In this document: positions 44,617-60,539 of the stretch, one piece after another
How the letters are laid out: the number at the start of each line of letters is the position of its first letter
Numbering within the stretch: the stretch's first letter is position 1
Assembly: GCF_050920415.1 (NCBI RefSeq)
Contig: NZ_CP169309.1
Length of the DNA: 64,000 nt
Source: Escherichia coli
GTDB taxonomy: Bacteria > Pseudomonadota > Gammaproteobacteria > Enterobacterales > Enterobacteriaceae
Strand: one strand, 5' to 3'
Translations under genes and position numbers: made by a program
Notes under the pieces: generated by a model
Database searches by the model: none
Seen by the model: the letters and a program-made list of their open reading frames with translations, nothing else
What the model was told of the DNA's origin: nothing

Positions 44617-45195
44617 ATGGATCTGTTGATTGTTTTAACTTACGTGGCGCTGGCATGGGCGGTCTTTAAAATCTTCCGTATTCCGGTGAATCAGTGGACG
44701 CTGGCGACGGCGGCGCTGGGAGGCGTTTTTCTGGTAAGCGGTTTGATTTTGTTGATGAACTACAACCACCCTTACACTTTTACCGCACAGAAAGCGGTGA
44801 TTGCTATTCCCATCACGCCACAGGTGACGGGGATCGTGACTGAAGTCACTGACAAGAATAATCAGCTTATTCAGAAGGGCGAGGTGCTTTTTAAGCTCGA
44901 CCCGGTACGTTATCAGGCGCGAGTCGACAGACTTCAGGCTGACCTGATGACGGCGACGCATAATATAAAGACGCTGCGCGCGCAGCTCACTGAAGCGCAA
45001 GCCAATACCACCCAGGTTTCAGCGGAGCGTGACCGCTTGTTTAAAAATTATCAACGTTACCTGAAAGGCAGCCAGGCGGCGGTAAATCCGTTCTCAGAAC
45101 GTGATATCGACGATGCGCGGCAGAATTTTCTCGCGCAGGATGCGCTGGTGAAAGGTTCGGTGGCGGAACAGGCGCAAATCCAGAGCCAGCTCGAC
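44617..45195 (+). pseudogene. yibH: yibH 5' fragment (HlyD-family membrane fusion protein), 193 codons, interrupted by IS insertion
   Basis: [23 protein letters not shown]... reading frame runs into IS left end at 45196; the rest of the gene resumes at 47324. Confidence 0.85.
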
Positions 45196-45296
45196 TGTCA
45201 GCGCCAATGATATAAGACAGTAATTCACCATTTGGATTGTCCGCTCCACCCAACATGTTGTTTCCTTAAGGTTCCTACACCACAAAGGGAACACTC

Positions 45297-46343
45297 ATGC
45301 TGAGCAGAGAGGACTTTTACATGATAAAGCAAATGCGCCAGCAAGGTGCGTATATTGTTGATATTGCCACTCAGGTTGGTTGCTCTGAGCGGACTGTCAG
45401 ACGGTACCTGAAATACCCGGAACCTCCGGCCAGAAAAACACGCCACAAAATGGCCAAACTCAAGCCGTTCATGGACTATATCGACATGCGTCTGGCTGAG
45501 AATGTCTGGAACGGCGAGGTCATCCTGGCGGAAATCAAAGCGATGGGTTATACCGGTGGCCGTTCCATGTTGCGTTACTACATCCAGCCCAAACGTAAGA
45601 TGCGGCCATCGAAGAAAACGGTTCGCTTCGAAACTCAGCCCGGTTACCAGCTACAGCATGACTGGGGAGAAGTTGAGGCTGAGGTTGCCGGGCAACGATG
45701 CAGGGTTAACTTCGCGGTTAATACGCTGGGGTTCTCACGTCGCTTCCATGTCTTCGCGGCACCAAAGCAGGATGCTGAACATACCTATGAGTCACTGGTC
45801 CGCGCCTTTCGCTACTTCGGCGGCAGCGTGAAAACCGTGCTGGTCGATAACCAGAAAGCCGCAGTGCTGAAAAATAACAACGGGAAGGTGGTGTTCAACT
45901 CCGGGTTCCTGCTGCTGGCCGATCACTATGGCTTCCTGCCACGGGCCTGCCGTCCACGAAGGGCCAGAACCAAAGGTAAGGTGGAACGGATGGTGAAATA
46001 CCTCAAGGAAAACTTCTTCGTCCGGTACCGCCGGTTCGACAGCTTCGCCCATGTTAATCAGCTACTGGAGCAGTGGATGGCTGACGTTGCCGACAGGCGG
46101 GAACTTCGCCAGTTCAGGCAGACACCGGAACAGCGCTTCACGCAGGAACAGGTGCATCTGCAGGCGCTGCCAGGTACGGACTTCGATACCAGCTACTTCG
46201 ATATCCGTCATGTCTCCTGGGATGGCTATATCGAGGTTGGCGGGAACCGTTACAGCGTGCCGGAAAGCCTGTGTGGCCAGCCGGTATCAATACGGATCTC
46301 GCTGGATGATGAACTGCGATTTACAGTAATGAGCAACAGGTAG
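45297..46343 (+). pseudogene. istA: IS21-family transposase IstA, frameshifted near 3' end (348 aa as read; about 390 aa if the -1 shift around 46313-46343 is repaired, then ending at 46468)
   Basis: HTH N-terminus and integrase-core-like body; alternative frame open from 46313 to TGA at 46466-46468, which overlaps the istB ATG. Confidence 0.8.
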
Positions 46344-46455
46344 CATCGCACCGTCTCTGTTCGGCTGTATACGGCTGGCAGACCGTGCCGGAGCATCACG
46401 CCCCACTCTGGCAGCAGGTCAGTCAGGTGGAACACAGGCCGTTGAGTGCCTATGA

Positions 46456-47262
<807 letters not shown>

Positions 47263-47323
47263 TGACCAATAGCGGACATTAAAAATGGCGAAAAACGGCC
47301 AATAATCTTGGCGTTGACACGAC

Positions 47324-47881
47324 AGTATGGTTAACGGTGAGCAGTCGCAGATTGTCAGCTTAAGGGCGCAGCTTACCGAAGCGAAATATAACCTTGAGCA
47401 GACCGTCATTCGCGCGCCGAGCAATGGCTACGTTACTCAGGTACTGATCCGCCCAGGTACATACGCAGCTGCCTTGCCGCTACGTCCGGTGATGGTTTTC
47501 ATCCCCGAGCAAAAACGGCAAATTGTCGCCCAATTTCGGCAGAACTCGCTGTTACGTCTGAAACCCGGCGATGATGCGGAAGTAGTGTTTAACGCGCTAC
47601 CTGGGCAGGTGTTCCACGGCAAACTGACTAGTATTTTACCTGTCGTGCCAGGTGGTTCGTATCAGGCGCAGGGGGTACTGCAATCATTAACCGTCGTACC
47701 CGGCACGGACGGTGTGCTGGGAACCATCGAACTGGACCCTAACGCTGATATCGATGCTTTACCCGACGGCATCTACGCCCAGGTGGCAGTTTACTCCGAC
47801 CATTTCAGCCATGTTTCGGTGATGCGGAAGGTGCTGCTAAGAATGACCAGTTGGATGCATTATCTTTATTTGGATCATTGA
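47324..47881 (+). pseudogene. yibH: yibH 3' fragment (185 codons); joins in-frame with 44617-45195 to give 378 aa once IS and TSD are removed
   Basis: ...[32 protein letters not shown]... typical HlyD/EmrA-like; frame arithmetic confirms. Confidence 0.85.
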
Positions 47882-48185
47882 GGGGGGCGGGGGAGATTAT
47901 GGAACTTTGCTCCTTGTAAGGACTAATTATTTTTGCATATTACTTCATTGGCTGCGATGATTTTTCTTTAATATTCATTAGGTTGAGAAGTTCTTGATGA
48001 GTGTGCTCTCATTGGATTTTTTATCCGTCTTGTTCTGCCGCAGGATCAGACTATACATCGTCGAGATCGCAATGATTATGAATTGTTCCTCTGCGACGAT
48101 GCTAATCAAAAAAGTGCTGGAGTGCTTTTCCATCTATTGCGATGATGGTTTTATTATCTGAAGAATGACAGTCACACATCCAGCT

Positions 48186-48457
48186 AATAAAGAACTCGTG
48201 AAATTTTCCAGGACTGATACAGGACACAACTCTGGTAATGATATCGTGAATAGGAATACCATATTAAAAATCACCATATTGCTTCAACAAATCGAGATGA
48301 GTCTCACCAGAATCCTCTATATCTTCCCATCCTTCAGCTCCGGAAATGATGGCGAAAATAATCAGCACTAGGATATCTGATAATTTATACTCTACTTTCC
48401 AGACTTGTCTGTAATCGGGACAGTAGAAATATGCTCCATTAATTTTTTAAGTTCCAT
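48186..48457 (-). pseudogene. H-repeat (ISAs1-family) transposase N-terminal fragment, degraded copy 1 (frameshift and in-frame stop)
   Basis: Begins ATG-GAA-CTT-AAA-AAA (MELKKLM...) like copy 2 at 50276-50572 but carries a 1-nt deletion and a stop. Confidence 0.7.
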
Positions 48458-48915
48458 TTTTTCTCCTTGTTTATGTAAGGAGTGTCTGAATATATATAAG
48501 CTATGAAAACACTTATTAAATAATAAGGGATATCTTGATTATTGGACATTTAGTGCTAATTGTTTAGTGCAAAAAATCGGCGTTATATGGTCTTTACCTT
48601 TATTACCCTTGCTGTTTTCCTCCAGCCTATGAAAAGCCAGCTTCAGTAAATCGTACCGCCCGAACATTGTAAGATACAATTTACTGACAACTTAGTACAT
48701 TATTAATATCACATTTAAGCTTTTTTTTCAGATTATAAAGCCTGTCCACTTTATAATCTTTGCAATTATAAACGTATTCTTTTTTTGTTTTCATATCAAT
48801 GACACTAACCCCTCGCATGTTACTACCGTTGTCGTAATTGCTAAACACGGAGTACTTATATCCACTTTGAATAAAACTAACGCTAAAGTAATCCGTTTGA
48901 AATCTGGAGTAATGA

Positions 48916-49128
48916 TTATAAAAAATCCTGAATACATTGGTCCATCTGAAATGAATTGAAATTTATCCCATGCTGACTATTCATTTCATAAATCAACGTT
49001 TCACCAAAACTTGTTAATGACAAAGTTCCTTTGGATGTATTACATAAAAAATAATTATTTCCTGCGTTTAGAGTCCAGGGAATTCCAGATAAAAAAATAA
49101 AAATTAATGCTCTATCTATATTGCTCAT
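48916..49128 (-). CDS. Small hypothetical protein (70 aa) with N-terminal hydrophobic segment; candidate immunity protein for the orphan muramidase-like toxin domain
   Basis: ORF start overlaps the stop of the orphan toxin ORF by 17 bp; MSNIDRALIFIFLSGIPWTLNAG... Confidence 0.35.
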   Translation of the reverse strand: MSNIDRALIFIFLSGIPWTLNAGNNYFLCNTSKGTLSLTSFGETLIYEMNSQHGINFNSFQMDQCIQDFL

Positions 49129-50276
49129 AATTAGCCCTTATTCTGTCATCATATCCTCGCTGACTTTGCCCATTATAACATAGAGCAAAGTTAAGCCAAT
49201 CTTTATCTCTAATAGCACGCAATAATACAGGATTAGATTTTATGAAGTTAATGAATGCCGCCAGATGGTTTTTCTCTGACTCTGAAATCGATATTATAAA
49301 CTCTTCGGGCGAAGAGTACCCGGCAGCTTGGTAATTTGAAGCCAATATCTGAAATTTACCCCACGATGCCGATTTAAGCGCAGCTTGCTTATCTAAAACA
49401 TATGCACGAAGTAATTTTTGATATTGCTCCGATCGTGTTCCATAACCGCCAGAACGGCTGTTGGAAATATCAGGTTGAGAATCATACACACCATTCGTAT
49501 ATCGATGGAAATGATGTCTTTCAAAAAGAATTGAGGGGACGTAATCATCTTCTTGTTCAAATTTAAAATAGCTACCGGAACTACCAGTTTCAGTTTTTGC
49601 AACAGCTTTAATTGCAGCCACTTCGCATTGTAGTGTCCTTGCAGCATTTTCATAGTCTGCATCATCAATGGTATCTCCGTTATAAAATCGTAAAAATTCC
49701 AATGGAATAAGTTCATTATTTACAGGAGTTTTTGGGTAATTGCTATTATTAATAGCATTCAAAAACACAACCGGATGAAAATGCCACACAGCATCATCAC
49801 TATTAAACGGAGACACCCCGCTCATCCACTCCAGATCCAGCTGCCACTTTTCACAGTATGCCACTTCCTCGGGTCCAGATCTTTATAAAACCCTTCCCAG
49901 CGTCCCGTCGAGCGACCGCCGTACCACTCGCTGTGGTGTCTGACTGTCAGACGATTCACCACATTTCTCACCAGTGGTTCACGCACGGTCAGCGCCTGTC
50001 TGATCTCTTCCTCCGTCACTTTTCCATCACCGTCCTGATCCATACCCGCCATCAGCTCACGATAAAAGGGCGGTACCTGCTCATACAGCCACTCATCTCC
50101 CTGTTCTGCGGCACGGCTTATTGAGTCAAACGCTTCCGGCACCCATCCTTCGTACGGGCTGTACGTCATGTCACCGCTGCTGTTCTCCTCCAGCGGCTGA
50201 AAACCCAGCTTCAGTAAATCATACTGTCCGGCCTCTTCAACATCCTTCTGTGGCAGCCAGCCGGTTCCGGTGATAT
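49112..50276 (-). pseudogene. Displaced (orphan) effector 3' module: shared pre-toxin region with EF-hand loop plus a distinct C-terminal N-acetylmuramidase-like domain; 5'-truncated and carrying a 1-nt frameshift near 49866
   Basis: 49764-50276 is near-identical to 52116-52630 of the full-length effector; downstream domain has ...FERHHFHRYT... and ...SWGKFQILASNY... motifs; no start codon; two overlapping ORFs (49822-50391, 49112-49864). Confidence 0.75.
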
Positions 50277-50572
50277 TAAGCCGCCTCTGGTTTCCTTTTA
50301 ATAAAGCACTCGTGAAATTTTGCAGGACTGATACAGGATACAACTCTGGCAATGGTATCGTGAACAGGAATACCATTATCAAAATCACCATATTGCTTCA
50401 AAAAATCGAGATGTGTTTCCCCAAAATCCTCTATATCTTCCCAGCCTTCTGCACCCGAAATAACGGCACAAATAGTCAACAGTAGAATATCCGATAATTT
50501 ATGTTGCACTTTCCAGGCTTGTCTGTAATCGGGGATAATAGAAATATGTCCCATCAATTTTTTAAGTTCCAT
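50276..50572 (-). pseudogene. H-repeat (ISAs1-family) transposase N-terminal fragment, copy 2 (about 92 codons then truncated)
   Basis: [64 protein letters not shown]... matches the start of E. coli H-rpt proteins, then loses homology. Confidence 0.8.
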
Positions 50573-50873: not shown

Positions 50874-51284
50874 TCATCCAGTCCATTTGCAATCAGTACC
50901 ATCATCATTATATGCCTCAATATTTTCTTCAAACTCAGTTGTTTTCCCACTTATTGATTTATAATGAAACAAATTAAATCTTGCACCTTGTGTGGAAACA
51001 ACATACAACCCATTAATTTTTCCATTTACAACCTCGCTCCATGCATAAGAAAATTCAGAAGGCCTGTCATCGAAAGTCACTTCTAATTTATTTATAAACG
51101 CAAGAGGTATAAATTTTGAGGATTTCTCATAAATCACATAACCTAAAAAAATATCGCCAGACGATATTTCAACAAACTTTAAATTTGTTTTCCCAGCGCT
51201 AAAACAGCCTACCGTTGTTTGTTGTTTAGCCAATAAACAACAAGGCACCAAACAAAACAGTAAAACCAATAAGTTAACTTTCAT
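50874..51284 (-). CDS. Candidate immunity protein (136 aa, cleavable signal peptide) for the upstream GH19-like effector
   Basis: MKVNLLVLLFCLVPCCLLA...; 5 bp downstream of effector stop; small secreted protein. Confidence 0.55.
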   Translation of the reverse strand: MKVNLLVLLFCLVPCCLLAKQQTTVGCFSAGKTNLKFVEISSGDIFLGYVIYEKSSKFIPLAFINKLEVTFDDRPSEFSYAWSEVVNGKINGLYVVSTQGARFNLFHYKSISGKTTEFEENIEAYNDDGTDCKWTG

Positions 51285-51289
51285 ATCAA

Positions 51290-53779
51290 TTACTCCAGTT
51301 CAGTTATTCGTCTCTCTACAAATGTGGATATATTCCTTTTTTCTATTCCATATACTTTTCTATCACCCTCACGCCCTTCCTGAGGAAACGGATGCAGGTC
51401 AATTAATTCTTTCGCCCTTCTATAACCTTTTAATGCTTCTTCGTTACTCTTGATCGTCCCTCTTCGGGAGCTATCAGGATCATGCCATATCCCCCATCCC
51501 AAAGCATATACTTTATTATCATATACGTCACTATCATCAAACAAGAAATCGTCGTTCATTGCTTTCTGATTTAAATGCTCGGCAGCAAGTGAGGTAACCA
51601 ATTTATTAAATATCGACAACCGTTCATCATAATGATTATACCCTCCATTAATCACTGCTGTAATTTTATTAAAATCATCATTTTTAGCATCTTCATTTAT
51701 TCTTTTGAATATATTGAAATACCAAAACGCAGATAATACGCAATGTGGGGAGGATATAAGTTTATCTCTTGCGGAATCTGAAGATGTTACGTCCTCATTG
51801 ATATATTCCCCATAGGCGGTGTAATTACTTTCCCCTGTAACTTGTATTAAGCCTCGGCCATACCACGGACTATATGAAGCTGATTCACCATTAATTTCTT
51901 TGGTATATCTAAAATAACCGCTCTCGTGAATAATTTGAGCAAGAAAATGGGCTTTTTCTCTACAAGTGGTCATACCAAACCGAATAAACCCTGCATTTAT
52001 ATCGTAGAGGTACCTTTTGAGAAGACCTTCACTTACTGCAGGAGCAACTTTTTTTAATTCATCTAATGTTATATCTCTGTTGCAAGCACACACAGATTTG
52101 GAATTAATAGCGTCCAAAAACACAACCGGATGAAAATGCCACACAGCATCATCACTATTAAACGGAGATACCCCGCTCATCCACTCCAGATCCAGCTGCC
52201 ACTTCTCACAGTATGCCACTTCCTCTGTGTCCAGATCTTTATAAAATCCTTCCCACCGCCCTGTCGAGCGCCCTCCGTACCATTCGCTGTGGTGTTTAAC
52301 TATCAGATGATTCACCACATTTCTCACCAGTGGTTCACGCACGGTCAGCGCCTGTCTGATCTCTTCCTCCGTCACTTTTCCATCACCGTCCTGATCCATA
52401 CCCGCCATCAGCTCACGATAAAAGGGCGGTACCTGCTCATACAGCCACTCATCTCCCTGTTCTGCGGCACGGCTTATTGAGTCAAACGCTTCCGGCACCC
52501 ATCCTTCGTACGGGCTGTACGTCATGTCACCGCTGCTGTTCTCCTCCAGCGGTTGAAAACCCAGCTTCAGTAAATCATACTGTCCGGCCTCTTCAACATC
52601 CTTTTGTGGCAGCCAGCCGGTTCCGGTGATATTAAACCACCACTGCTGCGATTCATCCGTGATCGGTGTCGTGGCTTCCCGCGGAAGAACGCGCTGAGCA
52701 CCCAGTGTGGCTGCGGTTGCGGTAAATACCTCCTGTCCCGGAACGGCCTGCCGGGTGTATAAAATTATCCCTTTTGGTGCCAGAACAGTCCGTTTTTCTC
52801 CCTTAACGCCTGCCGGGTTGGATAAGAACTTTGGCATATTCGGGTCTGTACTCAGAACCTCCAGATGGACGAACCACTCGCGCTCAATCTCACCGCTTCC
52901 CTCGCCAGGATAATCCTCGCATCCCATAAATCCGACCGGTGTTCCGGCACTGACTTTCCACTCTTCCGTTTCGTCGACCGTCTGTACCGAGTCAAAAATG
53001 CCTTTTGCCTTCGCCTTCTGCATCCACTCAGGCATCAGCATCTGTATTTCGCCATCTGACTCCATCAGATCCGGATCCAGGGTCACCCAGTACTGCTCAT
53101 TCCCCGGTTTATTGCCTTCCAGCAGGCGAACCAGTCCGAATGTCGTCAGGACCGGCTGGCCGTTATTGGTCACGTAAAAACGTCCGGTCCGGGATGACAC
53201 AAACCGATCTCCCGCATTAAGTGTCCTGTTTCCGCTGATTTTCGGGGGTATCCAGTACGTGGCATGATCTCCGCTTTCCTGCCCCTCGGGAAGGCCGTTC
53301 TTTCCCGGGATGTATCGGTGCAGCAATATGCCACCATGCCCGGTTTTAACTTTATAGCAGGGGGAGCCGGGATAATCGTTCACCGGGGCCAGATGCATAT
53401 AGAGACAGTAAAATTCCAGCCAGCTTTCTTTTTTTTGCGGGTCTGGCTGGCACTGCGATTTCACCAGAACAAATGTGCTGCTGTAACGGAGTTGCTGCCC
53501 TTTGTAGGTGCCTTTCAGGTAATCATTATTTATCCGGTACGCCGCAATGGTGCCATCGGCCATAAACTGAAGAGGAACCGGTTCTCCGGTAGCGGCGGTA
53601 TCCGGTTTCAGGGCTGATAACGGATTAGACACGTCACTGATATGTATCCCGCCGTGCCACAGCCCGTTTCCACCCAGCAGCCAGGTTCCGTGCGCTTCTT
53701 TGTCAATAAGCCGCATTATCTCATCCAGCGAGCGAAACTCTTTGCCTTCTTTATCCCTGATGGGATGGCTGATTTTCAT
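51290..53779 (-). CDS. VgrG-linked candidate T6SS effector, 829 aa: N-terminal domain of unknown function, central EF-hand-like Ca-binding loop, C-terminal GH19/lysozyme-like peptidoglycan hydrolase domain
   Basis: 9 bp downstream of vgrG stop; DQDGDGKVTEEE loop; C-terminal ...AHFLAQIIHESGYFRYTKE...YGRGLIQVTGESNYTAYG...LSAFWYFN... resembling the GH19 / COG3179 signature. Confidence 0.7.
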   Translation of the reverse strand: MKISHPIRDKEGKEFRSLDEIMRLIDKEAHGTWLLGGNGLWHGGIHISDVSNPLSALKPDTAATGEPVPLQFMADGTIAAYRINNDYLKGTYKGQQLRYSSTFVLVKSQCQPDPQKKESWLEFYCLYMHLAPVNDYPGSPCYKVKTGHGGILLHRYIPGKNGLPEGQESGDHATYWIPPKISGNRTLNAGDRFVSSRTGRFYVTNNGQPVLTTFGLVRLLEGNKPGNEQYWVTLDPDLMESDGEIQMLMPEWMQKAKAKGIFDSVQTVDETEEWKVSAGTPVGFMGCEDYPGEGSGEIEREWFVHLEVLSTDPNMPKFLSNPAGVKGEKRTVLAPKGIILYTRQAVPGQEVFTATAATLGAQRVLPREATTPITDESQQWWFNITGTGWLPQKDVEEAGQYDLLKLGFQPLEENSSGDMTYSPYEGWVPEAFDSISRAAEQGDEWLYEQVPPFYRELMAGMDQDGDGKVTEEEIRQALTVREPLVRNVVNHLIVKHHSEWYGGRSTGRWEGFYKDLDTEEVAYCEKWQLDLEWMSGVSPFNSDDAVWHFHPVVFLDAINSKSVCACNRDITLDELKKVAPAVSEGLLKRYLYDINAGFIRFGMTTCREKAHFLAQIIHESGYFRYTKEINGESASYSPWYGRGLIQVTGESNYTAYGEYINEDVTSSDSARDKLISSPHCVLSAFWYFNIFKRINEDAKNDDFNKITAVINGGYNHYDERLSIFNKLVTSLAAEHLNQKAMNDDFLFDDSDVYDNKVYALGWGIWHDPDSSRRGTIKSNEEALKGYRRAKELIDLHPFPQEGREGDRKVYGIEKRNISTFVERRITELE

Positions 53780-53788
53780 GTTCAGTCC

Positions 53789-55990
53789 TTATCGTGAGAA
53801 TCTTCCCGGCCGTTGTGGCGGTACCTTATCCTGCTGGGGAGGATCAAAGGCTTCCTGTACATTTTTCCGTGGTGGCTCCGCCCCTTCAGTTCCAGGTCCG
53901 CCATTGTCATAATCTGCCAGCGCTTTCAAAACCGCCGGTCGTAGTGTCGGCACCGGCGTTCCCGGACTACCGCCGCTATTGAGATTGATTTTCGGCCCGA
54001 CGATGTCCACGCCCCCTGAATGGATGACCACAAACGAACCACCCACCTTCAGGGTGATTTTACCGCCACTCTCCAGTACGATTTCATCCCGGACCTTCAT
54101 TCCCAGCGCACCGGTAATCTTCCTCGCCAGGTCGCCCTTCACCTCCAGACTGTGCGTTCCCTCCACCAGACTGATATGGTTCCCCGTCGTCTTATGCTCC
54201 TGCTTCCCTTCCACCGTCACTTTACGGTCGTTTCTGACATACAGGCCGTCATCGTGACTCACGCTCACCGTCCGGTCATTCGTCACCTTCAGCGTCTGGT
54301 CATTACGTACCGTTATGCGCCGGTCGTTCGCCACCGTGATACTCTGGTCGTGGCCCCCTTCTTTTCTGGTGCCGACCTCAACCGTCTGCCCCTTCACCAC
54401 CCTTATCTTCTGGTCGTTACCGATGGTCTCCGTATGGTCATGCTTCACGTCCGTCGTCCGGTCGTTAAGCACCTCCGTGTCCATGTTCTTCTGCGCGTGG
54501 ATATACACCTGCTCACTGTCCGTCGCATCCTCGAAACGCAGTTCATTAAAGCCGCTTCCTTTATAGGTCTTCGAGCGGATGGTCATCTGCGTCCGCGTGC
54601 CCGGTAAATCCCCCGGTGAACGGTTATCTTCATGGTAGGTCCGCCCCGTCACAATGGGCTGGTCCGGGTCGCCGTTCAGAAAGTCCACTATCACTTCCTG
54701 ACCCACACGCGGTATCGCCAGATTGCCGAACCCCGGTCCCGCCCATGCCTGCGACACCCGTATCCAGCATGAACTCTCCTCCGTCATCCCGTGATAACGG
54801 TCCCAGTGAAACTTCACCCGTACCCGGCCATGCTCGTCGCAGAATATCTCCTCGCCCTTCGGCCCGGTCACGATGGCACTCTGCGGGCCGTCCACCTTCG
54901 GCTTCGGCAGGGGCTGTGAGCGCCAGGTCCGGTCTGCCGGGATGACCGTGATATGGTTACTCAGTGTCGTTCCCCTCCCCTGGCTCCCGTGCAGCGCCTG
55001 CGGCTGGCTCCCCGTCAGCGTGCTGCTCACCACCTGCCACTCACGGTTCGGGTTCGCTCCCTGTACCGGATGCCCCGTCAGGGTGAACCGCCGTCCCGGC
55101 CACAGCGCCGGGGAGTTACTGATACCTGTGGCGGTTTCAGCACTGTTACGCAGCCCTTCCAGCCGGTAGCGGGTAAAGTCCTGACCATGCTGCTCGTCCT
55201 TGTAGCGCCCCGGCCAGTCCAGGATTTTGTACTGCTTCAGTTGCTCGTTGAGGTTTTCAGCATCCTCAATGTAAATACCCGGCCAGTCCGGCACCTTAAA
55301 CGTGTGGTCTTTTGAACGCACCTGCGAGGGCCGCACCTGCGCCTGGTAGCGGAACAGGCTGATGCACGCCGTCGTCACCTCACGGGTGTTCGGGTTAAAC
55401 GGTATCTCCCCGTACACCGGCAGGCCCGCCACATCATCGCACAGCGTGAGCGTCTGCTCCGGGCTGTCGTCAGCGTATCTGTCATAAAAGAAGATGCCTT
55501 CCTCCGCCCACAGCCGGGTCAGAAACGCCAGGTCGCTTTCACCGTACTGGACGCAGAACTCCCGTGCCGGGTGGCTCTCATAAAAGCGCGGCGTCCACTG
55601 CGTCACTCCGTCCTCGTTTAACAGCGTGGCGGAGATGGCCTGAATGTCCTGCTGCTGGAAGATTCGGTAGTTCTGCCGCAGCCCGCTGCGCCACAGGGGC
55701 GGGCGTATCTGAAGGTGGTACTGCATCTGCCAGCCGTTGTGCTCCTTCATGCCTAACCCCGACACCACACCGCTCACATAACGCAGCGCCGTGCCACCCT
55801 GCCAGATGGTCAGCACGGCCCCCTTCTCCAGCAGCTTCTCCGCCGTCTGGCGGAACGAGTCGCTGGCAACGTCCACATCCAGGACGAACGGCGATGAGTA
55901 TGCCTGCGTGAGGCGGAAATCCACCACCGCGAACGTCTCCGGCACCAGTCCGTCCACCGTCAGCGTAAAACGCAGCCCTTTTAATGACAT
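53789..55990 (-). CDS. vgrG: T6SS spike protein VgrG (copy B), 733 aa
   Basis: MSLKGLRFTLTVDGL...; gp27/gp5-like regions (...GQEVIVDFLNGDPDQPIVTGRTYH...) and C-terminal beta-helix repeats (VKHDHTETIG...ITVANDRRITVRNDQTLKVTNDRTVSV...). Confidence 0.9.
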   Translation of the reverse strand: MSLKGLRFTLTVDGLVPETFAVVDFRLTQAYSSPFVLDVDVASDSFRQTAEKLLEKGAVLTIWQGGTALRYVSGVVSGLGMKEHNGWQMQYHLQIRPPLWRSGLRQNYRIFQQQDIQAISATLLNEDGVTQWTPRFYESHPAREFCVQYGESDLAFLTRLWAEEGIFFYDRYADDSPEQTLTLCDDVAGLPVYGEIPFNPNTREVTTACISLFRYQAQVRPSQVRSKDHTFKVPDWPGIYIEDAENLNEQLKQYKILDWPGRYKDEQHGQDFTRYRLEGLRNSAETATGISNSPALWPGRRFTLTGHPVQGANPNREWQVVSSTLTGSQPQALHGSQGRGTTLSNHITVIPADRTWRSQPLPKPKVDGPQSAIVTGPKGEEIFCDEHGRVRVKFHWDRYHGMTEESSCWIRVSQAWAGPGFGNLAIPRVGQEVIVDFLNGDPDQPIVTGRTYHEDNRSPGDLPGTRTQMTIRSKTYKGSGFNELRFEDATDSEQVYIHAQKNMDTEVLNDRTTDVKHDHTETIGNDQKIRVVKGQTVEVGTRKEGGHDQSITVANDRRITVRNDQTLKVTNDRTVSVSHDDGLYVRNDRKVTVEGKQEHKTTGNHISLVEGTHSLEVKGDLARKITGALGMKVRDEIVLESGGKITLKVGGSFVVIHSGGVDIVGPKINLNSGGSPGTPVPTLRPAVLKALADYDNGGPGTEGAEPPRKNVQEAFDPPQQDKVPPQRPGRFSR
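54085..54930. repeat. About 0.85-kb block near-identical to 58422-59267 (internal vgrG segment shared by both paralogs, offset 4337 bp)
   Basis: Antisense ORFs 54020-54607 and 54616-54945 are letter-identical to parts of 58204-58944 and 58953-59534; VgrG proteins identical over about 270 residues. Confidence 0.85.
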
Positions 55991-56145: not shown

Positions 56146-57075
56146 TTAATAATTCCTCAACGAATAAGGAGGAGATGCCCTGTCCCCATCAATAGTAACC
56201 ACGACCTGATTTGATCTTATTTTGAATATATTATCATTACCGCCATGATAGCCAAATCGTGCTAAAAAATCCTGAAATAGACCAGGTCCTCTATAAGGTC
56301 CACAGATTCTCCAAACCCGCCACTCCTCTATGCCATACGTTATTTTATCTATAGGATTAGTACACTCTCTTTCTGCCCGCCAGTTCATAATAGAAAGAAA
56401 ATACTCATATATATATTGTTCTGCAAACCACTCTTGATTAACTATTGTAAATTCTACCGTCCCTATATTATAACGATGAATGCCCGGTAAAAAGGCATAA
56501 TAATCGTTCAATGTGACATCAAAGGATAGCTCTTTCCCTGGTAATATCTCGCGCCAAACAGATTTACTTTTCCATTCACCAAAGCTACATTTTGTTTTTT
56601 TTAAAAAATCCAACTGAATGTTATCCATTATCGGTATAAACACACCACTACACAAGGAAGAGTAAGGCCCGCCGTTAACGTCAAGAGGAAGAGTTAGTCG
56701 ATGAACAAAATAAGATCCCTGGCTTTTATTCGATAAAACCACTGCAGCTGCTACAATATTTTCTTTCTGATGCACGGAAAGATGAAGATATATTTTATTT
56801 TTATCCTGATTATACTGACTCTCATTTTTACTGATAGTATAATATTGAAAAACAGCATAGGCTGAAAGATCATCATAATAATCATAATAATTAAGCCTTG
56901 TCGGTTCTACACGAGGATAGACACCAAGTTTTTCCATTACTCCATTCCAATGTAACTTCCCATATCTGTAATGAACCGCATAATCGCCAGAGATATCATA
57001 AGCAAATATTGGATGCACCCAAGAAAAAAAAGCAATAAAAACAATCCATCTAGCAAGCATATACTCCCCCGTCAA
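56146..57075 (-). CDS. Candidate immunity protein (309 aa, N-terminal signal peptide) for the upstream HExxH effector
   Basis: MLARWIVFIAFFSWVHPIFAYD... signal peptide; 9 bp downstream of the metallopeptidase-like gene; Trp/Tyr-rich. Confidence 0.5.
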   Translation of the reverse strand: MTGEYMLARWIVFIAFFSWVHPIFAYDISGDYAVHYRYGKLHWNGVMEKLGVYPRVEPTRLNYYDYYDDLSAYAVFQYYTISKNESQYNQDKNKIYLHLSVHQKENIVAAAVVLSNKSQGSYFVHRLTLPLDVNGGPYSSLCSGVFIPIMDNIQLDFLKKTKCSFGEWKSKSVWREILPGKELSFDVTLNDYYAFLPGIHRYNIGTVEFTIVNQEWFAEQYIYEYFLSIMNWRAERECTNPIDKITYGIEEWRVWRICGPYRGPGLFQDFLARFGYHGGNDNIFKIRSNQVVVTIDGDRASPPYSLRNY

Positions 57076-57084
57076 ATAAAAGCA

Positions 57085-57930
57085 TCAATATGGTACAGGA
57101 ATCTCGAAATAACGTTCGATATTATATGCATTCTGAAACAGTTCTGATTTTTTATCATTTTTTAATTTAGTGGCATGAGCAATATATTCGTCACCTGTAC
57201 TATACTCTATATCTACCGGCATATCTTCCGTCCACATGCCTCCAAACTTAAGTGAATCCCCGTACCTTATAAAGTGAGATAGTTCATGGCAGAGTGTCGA
57301 TGCCTTAGAGTTTTCCCCAGTGAATGGCCTATCTATAAATCTTTGTCCTATAGTTATACTTACCAAACTTTTAAAGCTTCCAGATTTTACACCCAAAATC
57401 TGATCGTAAGTTACATTGGCAGCATAAGCGTCATTATCTGTACAATTCACAAAGTTACCAATTTTGGGCCTGATTACGTCTTTGTCAACATATTCATTAC
57501 CCCCTTTGTCATTAAGAACAAGATTACAATTGGCATCACGTTTGAGGAAATGGTCATGAACGGTAACGTCTACACAATCACCTTCCACAGATAATTCCCC
57601 ACATATCTCATACAGGCGAGTAACGCCATTTCTCATATAATCCCTTGCCTTTATATTCTCTGTAAACAGAGTATTACGCCCCCCGAAAGGGAACTTTAAT
57701 TTAATATAAGTATTTCCATCAATGCCAAATATATTTATAAATTCCTGATTTTGTTCCGCCCCCCATTTATCACCAAGATCTTCTACTCTTTTTTTCAATA
57801 CAGCCATCTGCGCCTTCAGAGCCTCTCTCATCATTATTTTAAAATCATTAGTAATTTTCCCCTCCTTTAAAACTACACACTGTTCACCACTCTGGCTTTT
57901 TCCGCTCGTACTACCCTTTTCATCTCCCAT
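57085..57930 (-). CDS. VgrG-linked candidate effector, 281 aa, with HExxH zinc-metallopeptidase motif (TLCHELSHF)
   Basis: Follows vgrG copy A by 81 bp; HELSH motif in C-terminal third; no signal peptide. Confidence 0.6.
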   Translation of the reverse strand: MGDEKGSTSGKSQSGEQCVVLKEGKITNDFKIMMREALKAQMAVLKKRVEDLGDKWGAEQNQEFINIFGIDGNTYIKLKFPFGGRNTLFTENIKARDYMRNGVTRLYEICGELSVEGDCVDVTVHDHFLKRDANCNLVLNDKGGNEYVDKDVIRPKIGNFVNCTDNDAYAANVTYDQILGVKSGSFKSLVSITIGQRFIDRPFTGENSKASTLCHELSHFIRYGDSLKFGGMWTEDMPVDIEYSTGDEYIAHATKLKNDKKSELFQNAYNIERYFEIPVPY

Positions 57931-58011
57931 ATAAATCCTCCTTGGTATATATTTTCACTACAAACCCTGTTCCATTTATGCAAAAACACGCCAATTACAG
58001 GCGGTCACTCT

Positions 58012-60324
58012 CTATTCATTAATCCCTCCCCATATCATATCGATATTCAAATGCAACAATCTGACGTCTATTGTCTGCTCGCTGTCAGTGGTGAATATTT
58101 CCGTATACCCATCCTTATCCGTTTCTCCGCGGGTCTGCGTGCCGTCCTCAAAGAAGGCAATGTAGCGTGTCTCTGAATACGGTATCCCGTCATCGTCTGT
58201 AAAATGGAACTGGAGAGTATATTTTTCAGGGTTCTCATCATCATTCTCATCCTCCAGCGCCTCCAGTACAACCGGTTGCAGCGTCGATACTGGCGTCCCC
58301 GGACCTCCCCCACCATTCAGGTTTATCTTCGGCCCCACTATATCCACGCCGCCAGAGTGTATCACCACGAACGAACCGCCCGCTTTCAGGCTTATCTGGC
58401 TGCTGCTCTCCAGCACGATATCCCCGTCCACCTTTATCCCCAGCGCGCCACTCACCTTCTCCGCCAGGTCACCCTTCACCTCCAGGCTGTGTTTCCCCTC
58501 CACCAGGCTGATATGGTTTCCCGTCGTCTTATGCTCCTGCTTCCCTTCCACCGTCACTTTACGGTCGTTTCTGACATACAGGCCGTCATCGTGACTCACG
58601 CTCACCGTCCGGTCATTCGTCACCTTCAGCGTCTGGTCATTACGTACCGTTATGCGCCGGTCGTTCGCCACCGTGATACTCTGGTCGTGACCCCCTTCTT
58701 TTCTGGTGCCGACCTCAACCGTCTGCCCCTTCACCACCCTTATCTTCTGGTCGTTACCGATGGTCTCCGTATGGTCATGCTTCACGTCCGTCGTCCGGTC
58801 GTTAAGCACCTCCGTGTCCATGTTCTTCTGCGCGTGGATATACACCTGCTCACTGTCCGTCGCATCCTCGAAACGCAGTTCATTAAAGCCGCTTCCTTTA
58901 TAGGTCTTCGAGCGGATGGTCATCTGCGTCCGCGTGCCCGGTAAATCCCCCGGTGAACGGTTATCTTCATGGTAGGTCCGCCCCGTCACAATGGGCTGGT
59001 CCGGGTCGCCGTTCAGAAAGTCCACTATCACTTCCTGACCCACACGCGGTATCGCCAGATTGCCGAACCCCGGTCCCGCCCATGCCTGCGACACCCGTAT
59101 CCAGCATGAACTCTCCTCCGTCATCCCGTGATAACGGTCCCAGTGAAACTTCACCCGTACCCGGCCATGCTCGTCGCAGAATATCTCCTCACCCTTCGGC
59201 CCGGTCACGATGGCACTCTGCGGGCCGTCCACCTTCGGCTTCGGCAGCGGCGCGTGACGCCACGTCCTGTCTGCCGGTATCACCTCAAACTGATTGCTCA
59301 GTGTCGTCCCTTCACCGTGACTCCCGTGCAGCGCCTGCGGCTGTTCTCCCCGCAGTGTGCTTCCCACAACCTGCCATTCCCGGTTCAGCGTCGCTGACGG
59401 ATGGCCCGTCAGCCGGAACCGCGTTCCCGGCCACAGCCGCGCCGTGTTACACACCCCGCTCGCCGTCTCCGCCCCGTTCCGCCACCCTTCCGTCTGGTAA
59501 CGCGCAAAATCCTGGCCATGCTGCTCATCCTTGAAACGCCCCGGATAATCAAATATCTCGTACTGCGTTCCCTGTCCGTTCAGGCTCTCCCCGTCATGGC
59601 TGTAGTACCCCGGCCACCCCGGCGTTTTGAACGTATAATCCTGCGTCTCCACCGACGCCACGCTTATCTGCGCACGGTAACGGAAGTCGCGGATGTACTC
59701 TGTCGTGCCTCCGGTCGTGGTATTCGGGTTAAACGCCAGCGCCCCCATTCCCGTCAGCCCCGCCACGTCATCACACACCGCCAGCTTCTGTTCCGGCCCG
59801 TCCTGACTGCAGCGTTCATAAAAGAAGATACCTTCCTCCGCCCACAGCCGGGTCAGGAATGTCAGGTCGCTCTCCCCGTACTGCACGCAGAACTCCCGCG
59901 CCGGGTGCGCCTCATAGAACAGCGGCATCCACGCCGTCACCCCGTTCTCTTCAAGAAGCTGCGCTGATATCGTCTGAATGTCCTGCTGCTGGAAGATACG
60001 GAAGTTCTGCCGTAACCCTGCCCGCCACAGCGGCGGGCTGATGCTCAGGGAATAACGCATCTGCCAGTCGTTGTTCTCACCGAGCTGCACCTCTGTCACG
60101 ATACCGCTGACGTAACGCTGTGCAGTGTCGCCCTGCCAGACCGTCAGCACCGCGCTTTTCTCCAGAAAATCTTCTGCCGTCAGGTCAGACAGTCCGCTGG
60201 CGATATCCACATCCAGGATGAACGGTGTGCAGTGGTGCTGGTACAGACGGAAGCTCACCACCGCCGTCGCCATCTCCACAATACCGTCCACCGACAGCGT
60301 GAAACGTAATCCTTCTGCTGCCAT
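58012..60324 (-). CDS. vgrG: T6SS spike protein VgrG (copy A) with about 100-aa C-terminal extension, 770 aa from MAAEGLRFTL (the ORF in the track starts 11 codons upstream)
   Basis: Same domain order as copy B; extra C-terminal tail ...EKYTLQFHFTDDDGIPYSETRYIAFFEDGTQTRGETDKDGYTEIFTTDSEQTIDVRLL... Confidence 0.9.
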   Translation of the reverse strand: MAAEGLRFTLSVDGIVEMATAVVSFRLYQHHCTPFILDVDIASGLSDLTAEDFLEKSAVLTVWQGDTAQRYVSGIVTEVQLGENNDWQMRYSLSISPPLWRAGLRQNFRIFQQQDIQTISAQLLEENGVTAWMPLFYEAHPAREFCVQYGESDLTFLTRLWAEEGIFFYERCSQDGPEQKLAVCDDVAGLTGMGALAFNPNTTTGGTTEYIRDFRYRAQISVASVETQDYTFKTPGWPGYYSHDGESLNGQGTQYEIFDYPGRFKDEQHGQDFARYQTEGWRNGAETASGVCNTARLWPGTRFRLTGHPSATLNREWQVVGSTLRGEQPQALHGSHGEGTTLSNQFEVIPADRTWRHAPLPKPKVDGPQSAIVTGPKGEEIFCDEHGRVRVKFHWDRYHGMTEESSCWIRVSQAWAGPGFGNLAIPRVGQEVIVDFLNGDPDQPIVTGRTYHEDNRSPGDLPGTRTQMTIRSKTYKGSGFNELRFEDATDSEQVYIHAQKNMDTEVLNDRTTDVKHDHTETIGNDQKIRVVKGQTVEVGTRKEGGHDQSITVANDRRITVRNDQTLKVTNDRTVSVSHDDGLYVRNDRKVTVEGKQEHKTTGNHISLVEGKHSLEVKGDLAEKVSGALGIKVDGDIVLESSSQISLKAGGSFVVIHSGGVDIVGPKINLNGGGGPGTPVSTLQPVVLEALEDENDDENPEKYTLQFHFTDDDGIPYSETRYIAFFEDGTQTRGETDKDGYTEIFTTDSEQTIDVRLLHLNIDMIWGGINE

Positions 60325-60539
60325 ATAAACCCCATAGCTACCGCACTCATAGTGCAAACCATACGGGCTTATAAGAAAGGCTTAAGTGAGATATCTGCCA
60401 GATAGCAACTATTAGGAAAATATTTATATCACCATGATAAATATGTGATTTATTGGGAGATAACAAACCATCAACATTTTCTGCCCTTTTTCCCATCACC
60501 AGGCCATACTGATATTTTTCCTCGCACAAAGGACTCGGC

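Follow-up and report, generated by a model that had tools for sequence, protein, structure and literature searches.

The 136-amino acid (aa) open reading frame (ORF) at positions 50874..51284, minus strand, of a 64,000-nucleotide (nt) stretch of the Escherichia coli chromosome (NZ_CP169309.1; hereafter the window, meaning this whole stretch) very probably encodes the cognate periplasmic immunity protein of the GH19-like domain of a VgrG-linked WHIX-class type VI secretion system (T6SS) effector. Its product starts MKVNLLVLLFCLVPCCLLAKQQ, is predicted to be an exported eight-stranded β-barrel and is deposited as WP_000867650.1 (UniProt A0A0L7AH90). The ORF lies within the yibF–mtlA island. Among 5,426 complete E. 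coli genomes, three contain an identical stretch, and there WP_000867650.1 is annotated as 'hypothetical protein'. In the original prediction, made from the DNA letters, the coordinates, the length, the 5-bp spacing to the effector gene and the leader sequence were all correct, while the strand (minus) was left unstated.

On the minus strand, the gene order is VgrG (53789..55990), the 829-aa effector (51290..53779) and the 136-aa ORF (50874..51284). The VgrG/TssI spike protein of 733 aa is encoded directly upstream of the effector and is the presumed carrier. At the junction of effector and ORF (51285..51296, minus strand), as read from the sequence, the effector stop codon TAA (51292..51290) is followed by a 5-nt spacer (TTGAT) and by the ATG of the ORF (51284..51282), and a Shine-Dalgarno-like GGAG (51296..51293) lies 8 nt 5' of this ATG within the final effector codons (CTG GAG TAA TTGAT ATG). 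No terminator-like site was found between effector and ORF on the minus strand, and the junction is compatible with co-transcription and coupled translation. With the 5-nt gap, the shared strand and the VgrG gene directly upstream of the effector, the locus has the adjacency of a T6SS effector–immunity pair.

The N-terminal carrier part of the effector (residues 1–559; 52103..53779, minus strand; G+C ~0.54) contains the motif GLWHGGIHI of the WHIX/WHGGIH type near its N-terminus, an EF-hand (residues 455–479) and the conserved junction motif VWHFHPVVFL, which is located just ahead of the toxin domain. The toxin C-terminal domain (residues ~560–829; 51290..52102, minus strand; G+C 0.37) is composed of a GH19-like endolysin-type core (~594–732) and a tail of ~100 aa. 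The HES...E motif is intact in the core (E619/E628). The toxin domain matches endolysins in the PDB (9ms7, 4ok7 and 9eoi among the matches) with E-values from 1.7e-13 to 2.6e-9 and the PHROG endolysin phrog_181 at 3.6e-32. The effector is a GH19-like peptidoglycan hydrolase of the endolysin type. PDB entry 8xcl, which matches the effector at E = 5.8e-8, is taken to be the TseP C-terminal domain because it is 96% identical to a TseP-like effector of Aeromonas piscicola. The effector accession WP_000703217.1 appears in the supplementary files of the paper on WHIX-class T6SS effectors (PMC12135965). Relatives sharing the N-terminal 560 residues have varied C-termini, including N-acetylmuramidase, GH108, M23 plus lysozyme, CHAP, pesticin and several GH19-like domains, and effectors with a 98%-identical N-terminal part bear other toxin domains. 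With this architecture, the effector is a classic polymorphic toxin. The G+C content drops from ~0.52–0.54 to ~0.37–0.38 at effector codon ~551 (52100..52130), right after VWHFHPVVFL; this drop marks the swap point of the polymorphic toxin cassettes, much like the junction motifs of Rhs and contact-dependent inhibition (CDI) toxins. The tail past the GH19-like core (residues ~733–829; 51290..51590) has no database match and is confined to the subtype that is paired with the ORF family; it may contribute to recognition by the immunity protein.

The ORF region has a G+C content of 32.6%. In a random frame of this composition a stop is expected about every 13 codons, and by this base-composition estimate 136 open codons would arise by chance with a probability of ~2e-5. 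The ORF is a real gene under purifying selection, since its ratio of nonsynonymous to synonymous substitution rates (dN/dS) is 0.17–0.22 against four homologues. Its homologues form 12 clusters at 90% identity and 101 representatives at 50% identity, and they are named in their sources solely as hypothetical, uncharacterized, lipoprotein or secreted proteins. In an alignment of 64 sequences, E84, G92, Y94 and C132 are invariant, and C27, V50, Y52, W82, Q99, G100, Y108, F118 and W134 are conserved in at least 90%; C27, W82, E84, G92, Y94, Q99, G100 and C132 are listed as the conserved residues of the mature product. Searches of Pfam, NCBIfam, PADLOC, PHROGs and PDB sequences with the ORF and the 64-sequence profile gave no match, and neither did a Pfam search with the 64 family members, PF09864 and PF07007 included. 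The ORF is a member of an unnamed family without functional annotation in any of the databases searched.

The cleavable-looking signal peptide of the original prediction was recovered by rules as a Sec-type leader (residues 1–19), with a basic N-terminal end (K2), an uncharged hydrophobic run of 15 residues (L5–A19) and a plausible signal peptidase I site after L-L-A19, which is followed by KQQ. By the same rules, a hydrophobic export leader is present in 62 of the 64 family members, its sequence varying among them. A lipoprotein reading of the ORF was rejected, as there is no lipobox ([LVI][ASTVI][GAS]C at the end of the hydrophobic region). Within the family, eight lipobox-like matches were found, most of them at the conserved Cys of the mature chain, and a match inside the leader is seen in P0031 (LFGC), P0022, P0023 and P0079. 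C27 and C132, each close to one terminus of the mature chain, are conserved as a pair, which would fit a disulfide bond formed in the periplasm.

Across genomes, the ORF tracks the C-terminal toxin domain and not the common N-terminal carrier. The toxin subtype of the window was found in few effectors (53–99% identity), other GH19-like tails being 25–38% identical. At every readable locus with this subtype a family member is encoded immediately downstream, the pairings being confirmed by hmmsearch and blastp. Conservation of the adjacency in other genomes, which had been proposed as a check of the immunity reading, was found in six further lineages with the same toxin subtype, whose toxin domains are ~54–93% identical; at such loci the identity of the ORF goes down to ~40%, and the reading frames at the conserved toxin/ORF junctions overlap or are spaced by 5 nt. 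Pairs of toxin subtype and family member are found in Cronobacter dublinensis within a T6SS cluster (L002/L003), in Enterobacter cloacae (L103/L104), in a metagenomic array of orphan toxin modules (L008/L009) and at the loci L016/L017 and L100–L102. In the metagenomic array, the orphan C-terminal modules (muramidase, GH19-like, CHAP) each precede a small leader-bearing protein of their own, and the ORF family is kept there with orphan C-terminal modules that have no N-terminal part. At L100 the effector is in fragments and the ORF-family gene is intact. An orphan copy with 66% identity adjoins an insertion sequence (IS) element in some E. coli assemblies (L005–L007), and the orphan E. coli variant of the P0003 type was not found in the 5,426 complete E. 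coli genomes. Persistence beside a broken effector and as orphan copies is the pattern that an immunity gene would be expected to show. At two sampled loci of other GH19-like subtypes (L018, L019) the family member is absent, and the downstream proteins that accompany other GH19-like subtypes differ, with 274 aa in Klebsiella variicola and 239 aa in Leclercia. Furthermore, the hidden Markov model (HMM) of the family detected no member (E <= 10) in 80 TseP-C-like loci, i.e., the A. piscicola TseP locus and 79 related ones.

The ORF (G+C 0.33) and the toxin domain (0.37) are both low in G+C, compared to ~0.54 in the N-terminal part of the effector. Within the same genome pairs, the synonymous divergence (dS) of ORF and toxin domain is alike (0.24 vs 0.21; 1.08 vs 1.28). 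Conserved adjacency, subtype specificity, low G+C and matching dS together show that toxin domain and ORF constitute one mobile low-G+C cassette. The candidate-immunity reading of the original prediction is well supported by the conserved adjacency, the subtype specificity, the export leaders, the conserved cysteine pair and the published listing of the effector among WHIX proteins. Its additional statement, by which the ORF would be independent support for the effector call, is true only in part, as the position beside the effector was already included in that argument.

AlphaFold2 (AF2), run with the family alignment, predicted eight β-strands for the ORF product with a predicted local distance difference test (pLDDT) score of 91.8. 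The modelled product is predicted to resemble a PliC-type lysozyme inhibitor in its fold, membership in that family being unsupported. In AFDB50, 86 related clusters were found in gamma- and beta-proteobacteria; of the top matches listed, nearly all are uncharacterized, a few are termed 'lipoprotein' or 'secreted protein' and two bear DUF names (DUF2846, DUF3108). Homology to MliC/PliC (PF09864), considered for the STQGARF motif of the ORF and SASGARY of MliC, was rejected with an hhalign probability of 0.07% and the motif lying in another hairpin. In the search for TsiP, part of PDB 8xcl was rebuilt from an alignment; a word-based protein search with this part returned only matches of <=56% identity, and a genome scan then reached the A. 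piscicola TseP locus. The TsiP orthologue encoded there scored 0.5 bits against the family HMM, which is no match. Homology to AwiD was rejected as well, the mature AwiD sequence, obtained from the supplementary model file of PMC12135965, scoring 0.5 bits against the family HMM.

Several observations weigh against a function of the ORF as dedicated immunity protein. The leader calls come from a rule-based analysis and not from SignalP. The fold matched by the ORF product is a barrel of a very widespread type, with scores nearly as good for streptavidin, Cap15 and designed barrels, and the best Foldseek match of the model against the PDB reached only E ~0.03. No sequence similarity of the ORF to the TsiP orthologue, AwiD, LprI or MliC was found. 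A fused toxin–linker–ORF model calculated with AF2 gave a predicted template modelling (pTM) score of 0.37 with a poorly modelled toxin domain and yielded no confident complex. At L012 the family member is the third gene after an effector of another subtype, which is interpreted as the leftover of an earlier cassette. Finally, distant members (~30% identity) stand alone among housekeeping genes, and the T6SS is not represented in their vicinity (L010/L011, L014/L015). Because of these, the family is not exclusively composed of immunity proteins, and it may have a wider role as inhibitor.

Such a wider role is the core of the alternative that fares best, namely that the ORF encodes a general periplasmic inhibitor of GH19-type or lysozyme-like muramidases, similar in role to PliC/MliC and directed against foreign hydrolases such as rivals' effectors, phage lysins from outside and host enzymes, with the linkage to the effector as a secondary recruitment. 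This is regarded as improbable, as the close relatives (at least 40% identity) are tied to one toxin subtype, with which they share G+C content and dS, arguing for a cognate pairing. The readings as general inhibitor and as cognate immunity protein are not mutually exclusive. As a tentative extension, which is rather doubtful at present, the family might represent an unrecognised class of proteins that inhibit GH19-type muramidases (endolysin or chitinase-like). Their PliC/MliC-like barrel would stem either from very ancient shared ancestry or from convergence. General envelope defence against foreign GH19 hydrolases would in this case be the role of the stand-alone members, which occur in Burkholderia, Pseudomonas, Vibrio and other proteobacteria, and T6SS immunity in enterobacteria would be a specialised branch.

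It is quite unlikely that the ORF encodes an exported β-barrel with a role unrelated to the toxin, e.g., in ligand binding or in the envelope, which hitch-hikes in the cassette. Eight-stranded barrels do serve many functions, as in avidins, lipocalin-like binders and Cap15, and the lack of annotation of the ORF family would fit such a role; the adjacency in six other lineages, the retention in orphan modules and beside decayed effectors and the absence with other subtypes are, however, hardly to be expected of a passenger. Small accessory genes are common in VgrG–effector operons and the ORF is encoded within such an operon, but an adaptor or chaperone loading or stabilising the effector on VgrG is very unlikely, since loading is cytoplasmic whereas the ORF has an export leader, and since the ORF follows the toxin domain instead of the VgrG-binding WHIX part and persists without the N-terminal part.

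As a cognate immunity protein, the ORF product would be exported by Sec, cleaved after Ala19 and stabilised in the periplasm by a disulfide bond between C27 and C132. The mature protein would bind the toxin domain, either incoming or delivered by a sister cell, in a ratio of ~1:1. By analogy to PliC/MliC with lysozyme and to TsiP and AwiD with their effectors, it might block the substrate cleft of the toxin, and thereby hydrolysis of the cell wall would be prevented. Orphan copies and copies beside decayed effectors could protect against neighbours that still fire the same toxin.

Further observations concern the ORF family and its counterparts in other genomes. In NZ_CP169399.1, NZ_CM169999.1 and NZ_CM177019.1, the ORF search reports two matching places each, the second one outside the window. 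In Vibrio scophthalmi (L105, 300..7435), a row of small exported proteins is encoded, with two LprI/DUF1311 genes and one ORF-family member; there is no effector near this row, and it resembles an array of orphan immunity genes. At L012 (3201..4760) and L018 (7304..8128), the toxin is of another GH19-like subtype, and a leader-bearing protein of 273/274 aa is encoded after it, the Klebsiella copy of which shows a weak FG-GAP match. This protein recalls the Xanthomonas X-Tfi immunity protein to a GH19 type IV secretion system (T4SS) effector. The immunity folds used by the various GH19-like subtypes are thus unrelated.

The window contains further features in the neighbourhood of the ORF. Just downstream of it, a second toxin module, an orphan, is located on the minus strand (48681..50391). 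It is composed of a fragment that is 97% identical to effector residues 382–517 (49822..50391, minus strand), an N-acetylmuramidase C-terminal domain (49112..49864, minus strand) and a broken small leader-bearing partner (48916..49128 and 48681..48848, minus strand), of which an intact 148-aa version is found in L008 (950..1396). The module is flanked by ISAs1 transposase fragments (50276..50572 and ~48100..48600). At 44617..47881, the HlyD-family gene yibH is interrupted by an IS21-family element (ISEc62 in RefSeq; istA 45297..46343, istB 46465..47262), its two parts lying at 44617..45210 and at 47327..47881. A second VgrG island on the minus strand (56146..60357) encodes a 781-aa VgrG with a C-terminal extension, then a 281-aa and then a 309-aa protein. 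The 281-aa protein has a HELSH zinc-protease-like motif and no match in Pfam or NCBIfam; the 309-aa protein has a hydrophobic N-terminus and no match in NCBIfam. Both genes are low in G+C (~0.35), and they are probably another effector–immunity pair.

The assignment offers a likely function for an unannotated family of ~100 clusters at 50% identity and 86 clusters in the AlphaFold database, and it extends by one the list of immunity families for WHIX/TseP-type cell-wall toxins, which are widespread. Should the ORF product indeed block the GH19-like muramidase, it would serve well as a reagent and, structurally, as a model of how endolysin-type enzymes can be inhibited, and it would help to forecast the resistance of individual Enterobacteriaceae strains to particular T6SS attackers. 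Both the effector class and the rule that a downstream signal-peptide protein is the immunity protein are already known, having been published in 2025, and for the window the finding is an ordinary one. New here is a probable immunity family that appears to be unrelated in sequence to the validated proteins TsiP and AwiD.

Comparison with known systems starts with the periplasmic lysozyme inhibitors PliC/MliC (PF09864; PDB 3oe3, 4mir, 3f6z, 2f09), to which the ORF product is predicted to be similar in fold. The ORF does not match their family profile with its conserved SxSGAxY and YxxxTKG regions. The mature chain of the ORF is ~35 residues longer than these, its STQGARF motif is located in the β6–β7 hairpin whereas MliC has SxSGAxY after β4, and its presumed target is a GH19-like enzyme in contrast to the C-type lysozyme targeted by PliC/MliC. 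In Enterobacteriaceae, LprI/DUF1311 proteins likewise provide immunity in the periplasm against peptidoglycan hydrolases of the T6SS, as described for Etsi4 of E. coli O157:H7 (PMC12981562), and they are found in the same kinds of loci (L019, L103–L105); they nevertheless constitute a separate family, the ORF having no PF07007 match.

The closest parallels are the immunity proteins of effectors of the same type. In Aeromonas dhakensis, TsiP neutralises TseP, including its N-terminal amidase (PMC11893102). TseP is similar to the effector in the window in being VgrG-linked and in its WHGGIH motif, EF-hand and C-terminal GH19-like lysozyme domain. The TseP orthologue of A. piscicola is followed, 150 nt past its stop codon, by a gene for a signal-peptide protein, i.e., the TsiP orthologue (L020, 6525..7010, ~160 aa). 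This orthologue is outside the ORF family, and neutralisation of an N-terminal amidase is a feature of TsiP. For WHIX effectors, it was reported that the genes beside the toxin domains mostly encode signal-peptide proteins, which were taken as immunity proteins, and AwiD of Aeromonas jandaei Awe1 is a validated immunity protein of this class (PMC12135965). The ORF shares with AwiD/AwiU the effector class, the position directly downstream of the C-terminal toxin domain and a small product, which for the ORF is predicted to be exported as AwiD/AwiU are. In contrast, AwiD has no detectable similarity to the ORF, and the Awe1 C-terminal domain looks like another type of enzyme. Taken together, these sequence comparisons give good support to the view that the ORF family represents a separate immunity family for a known class of effectors.
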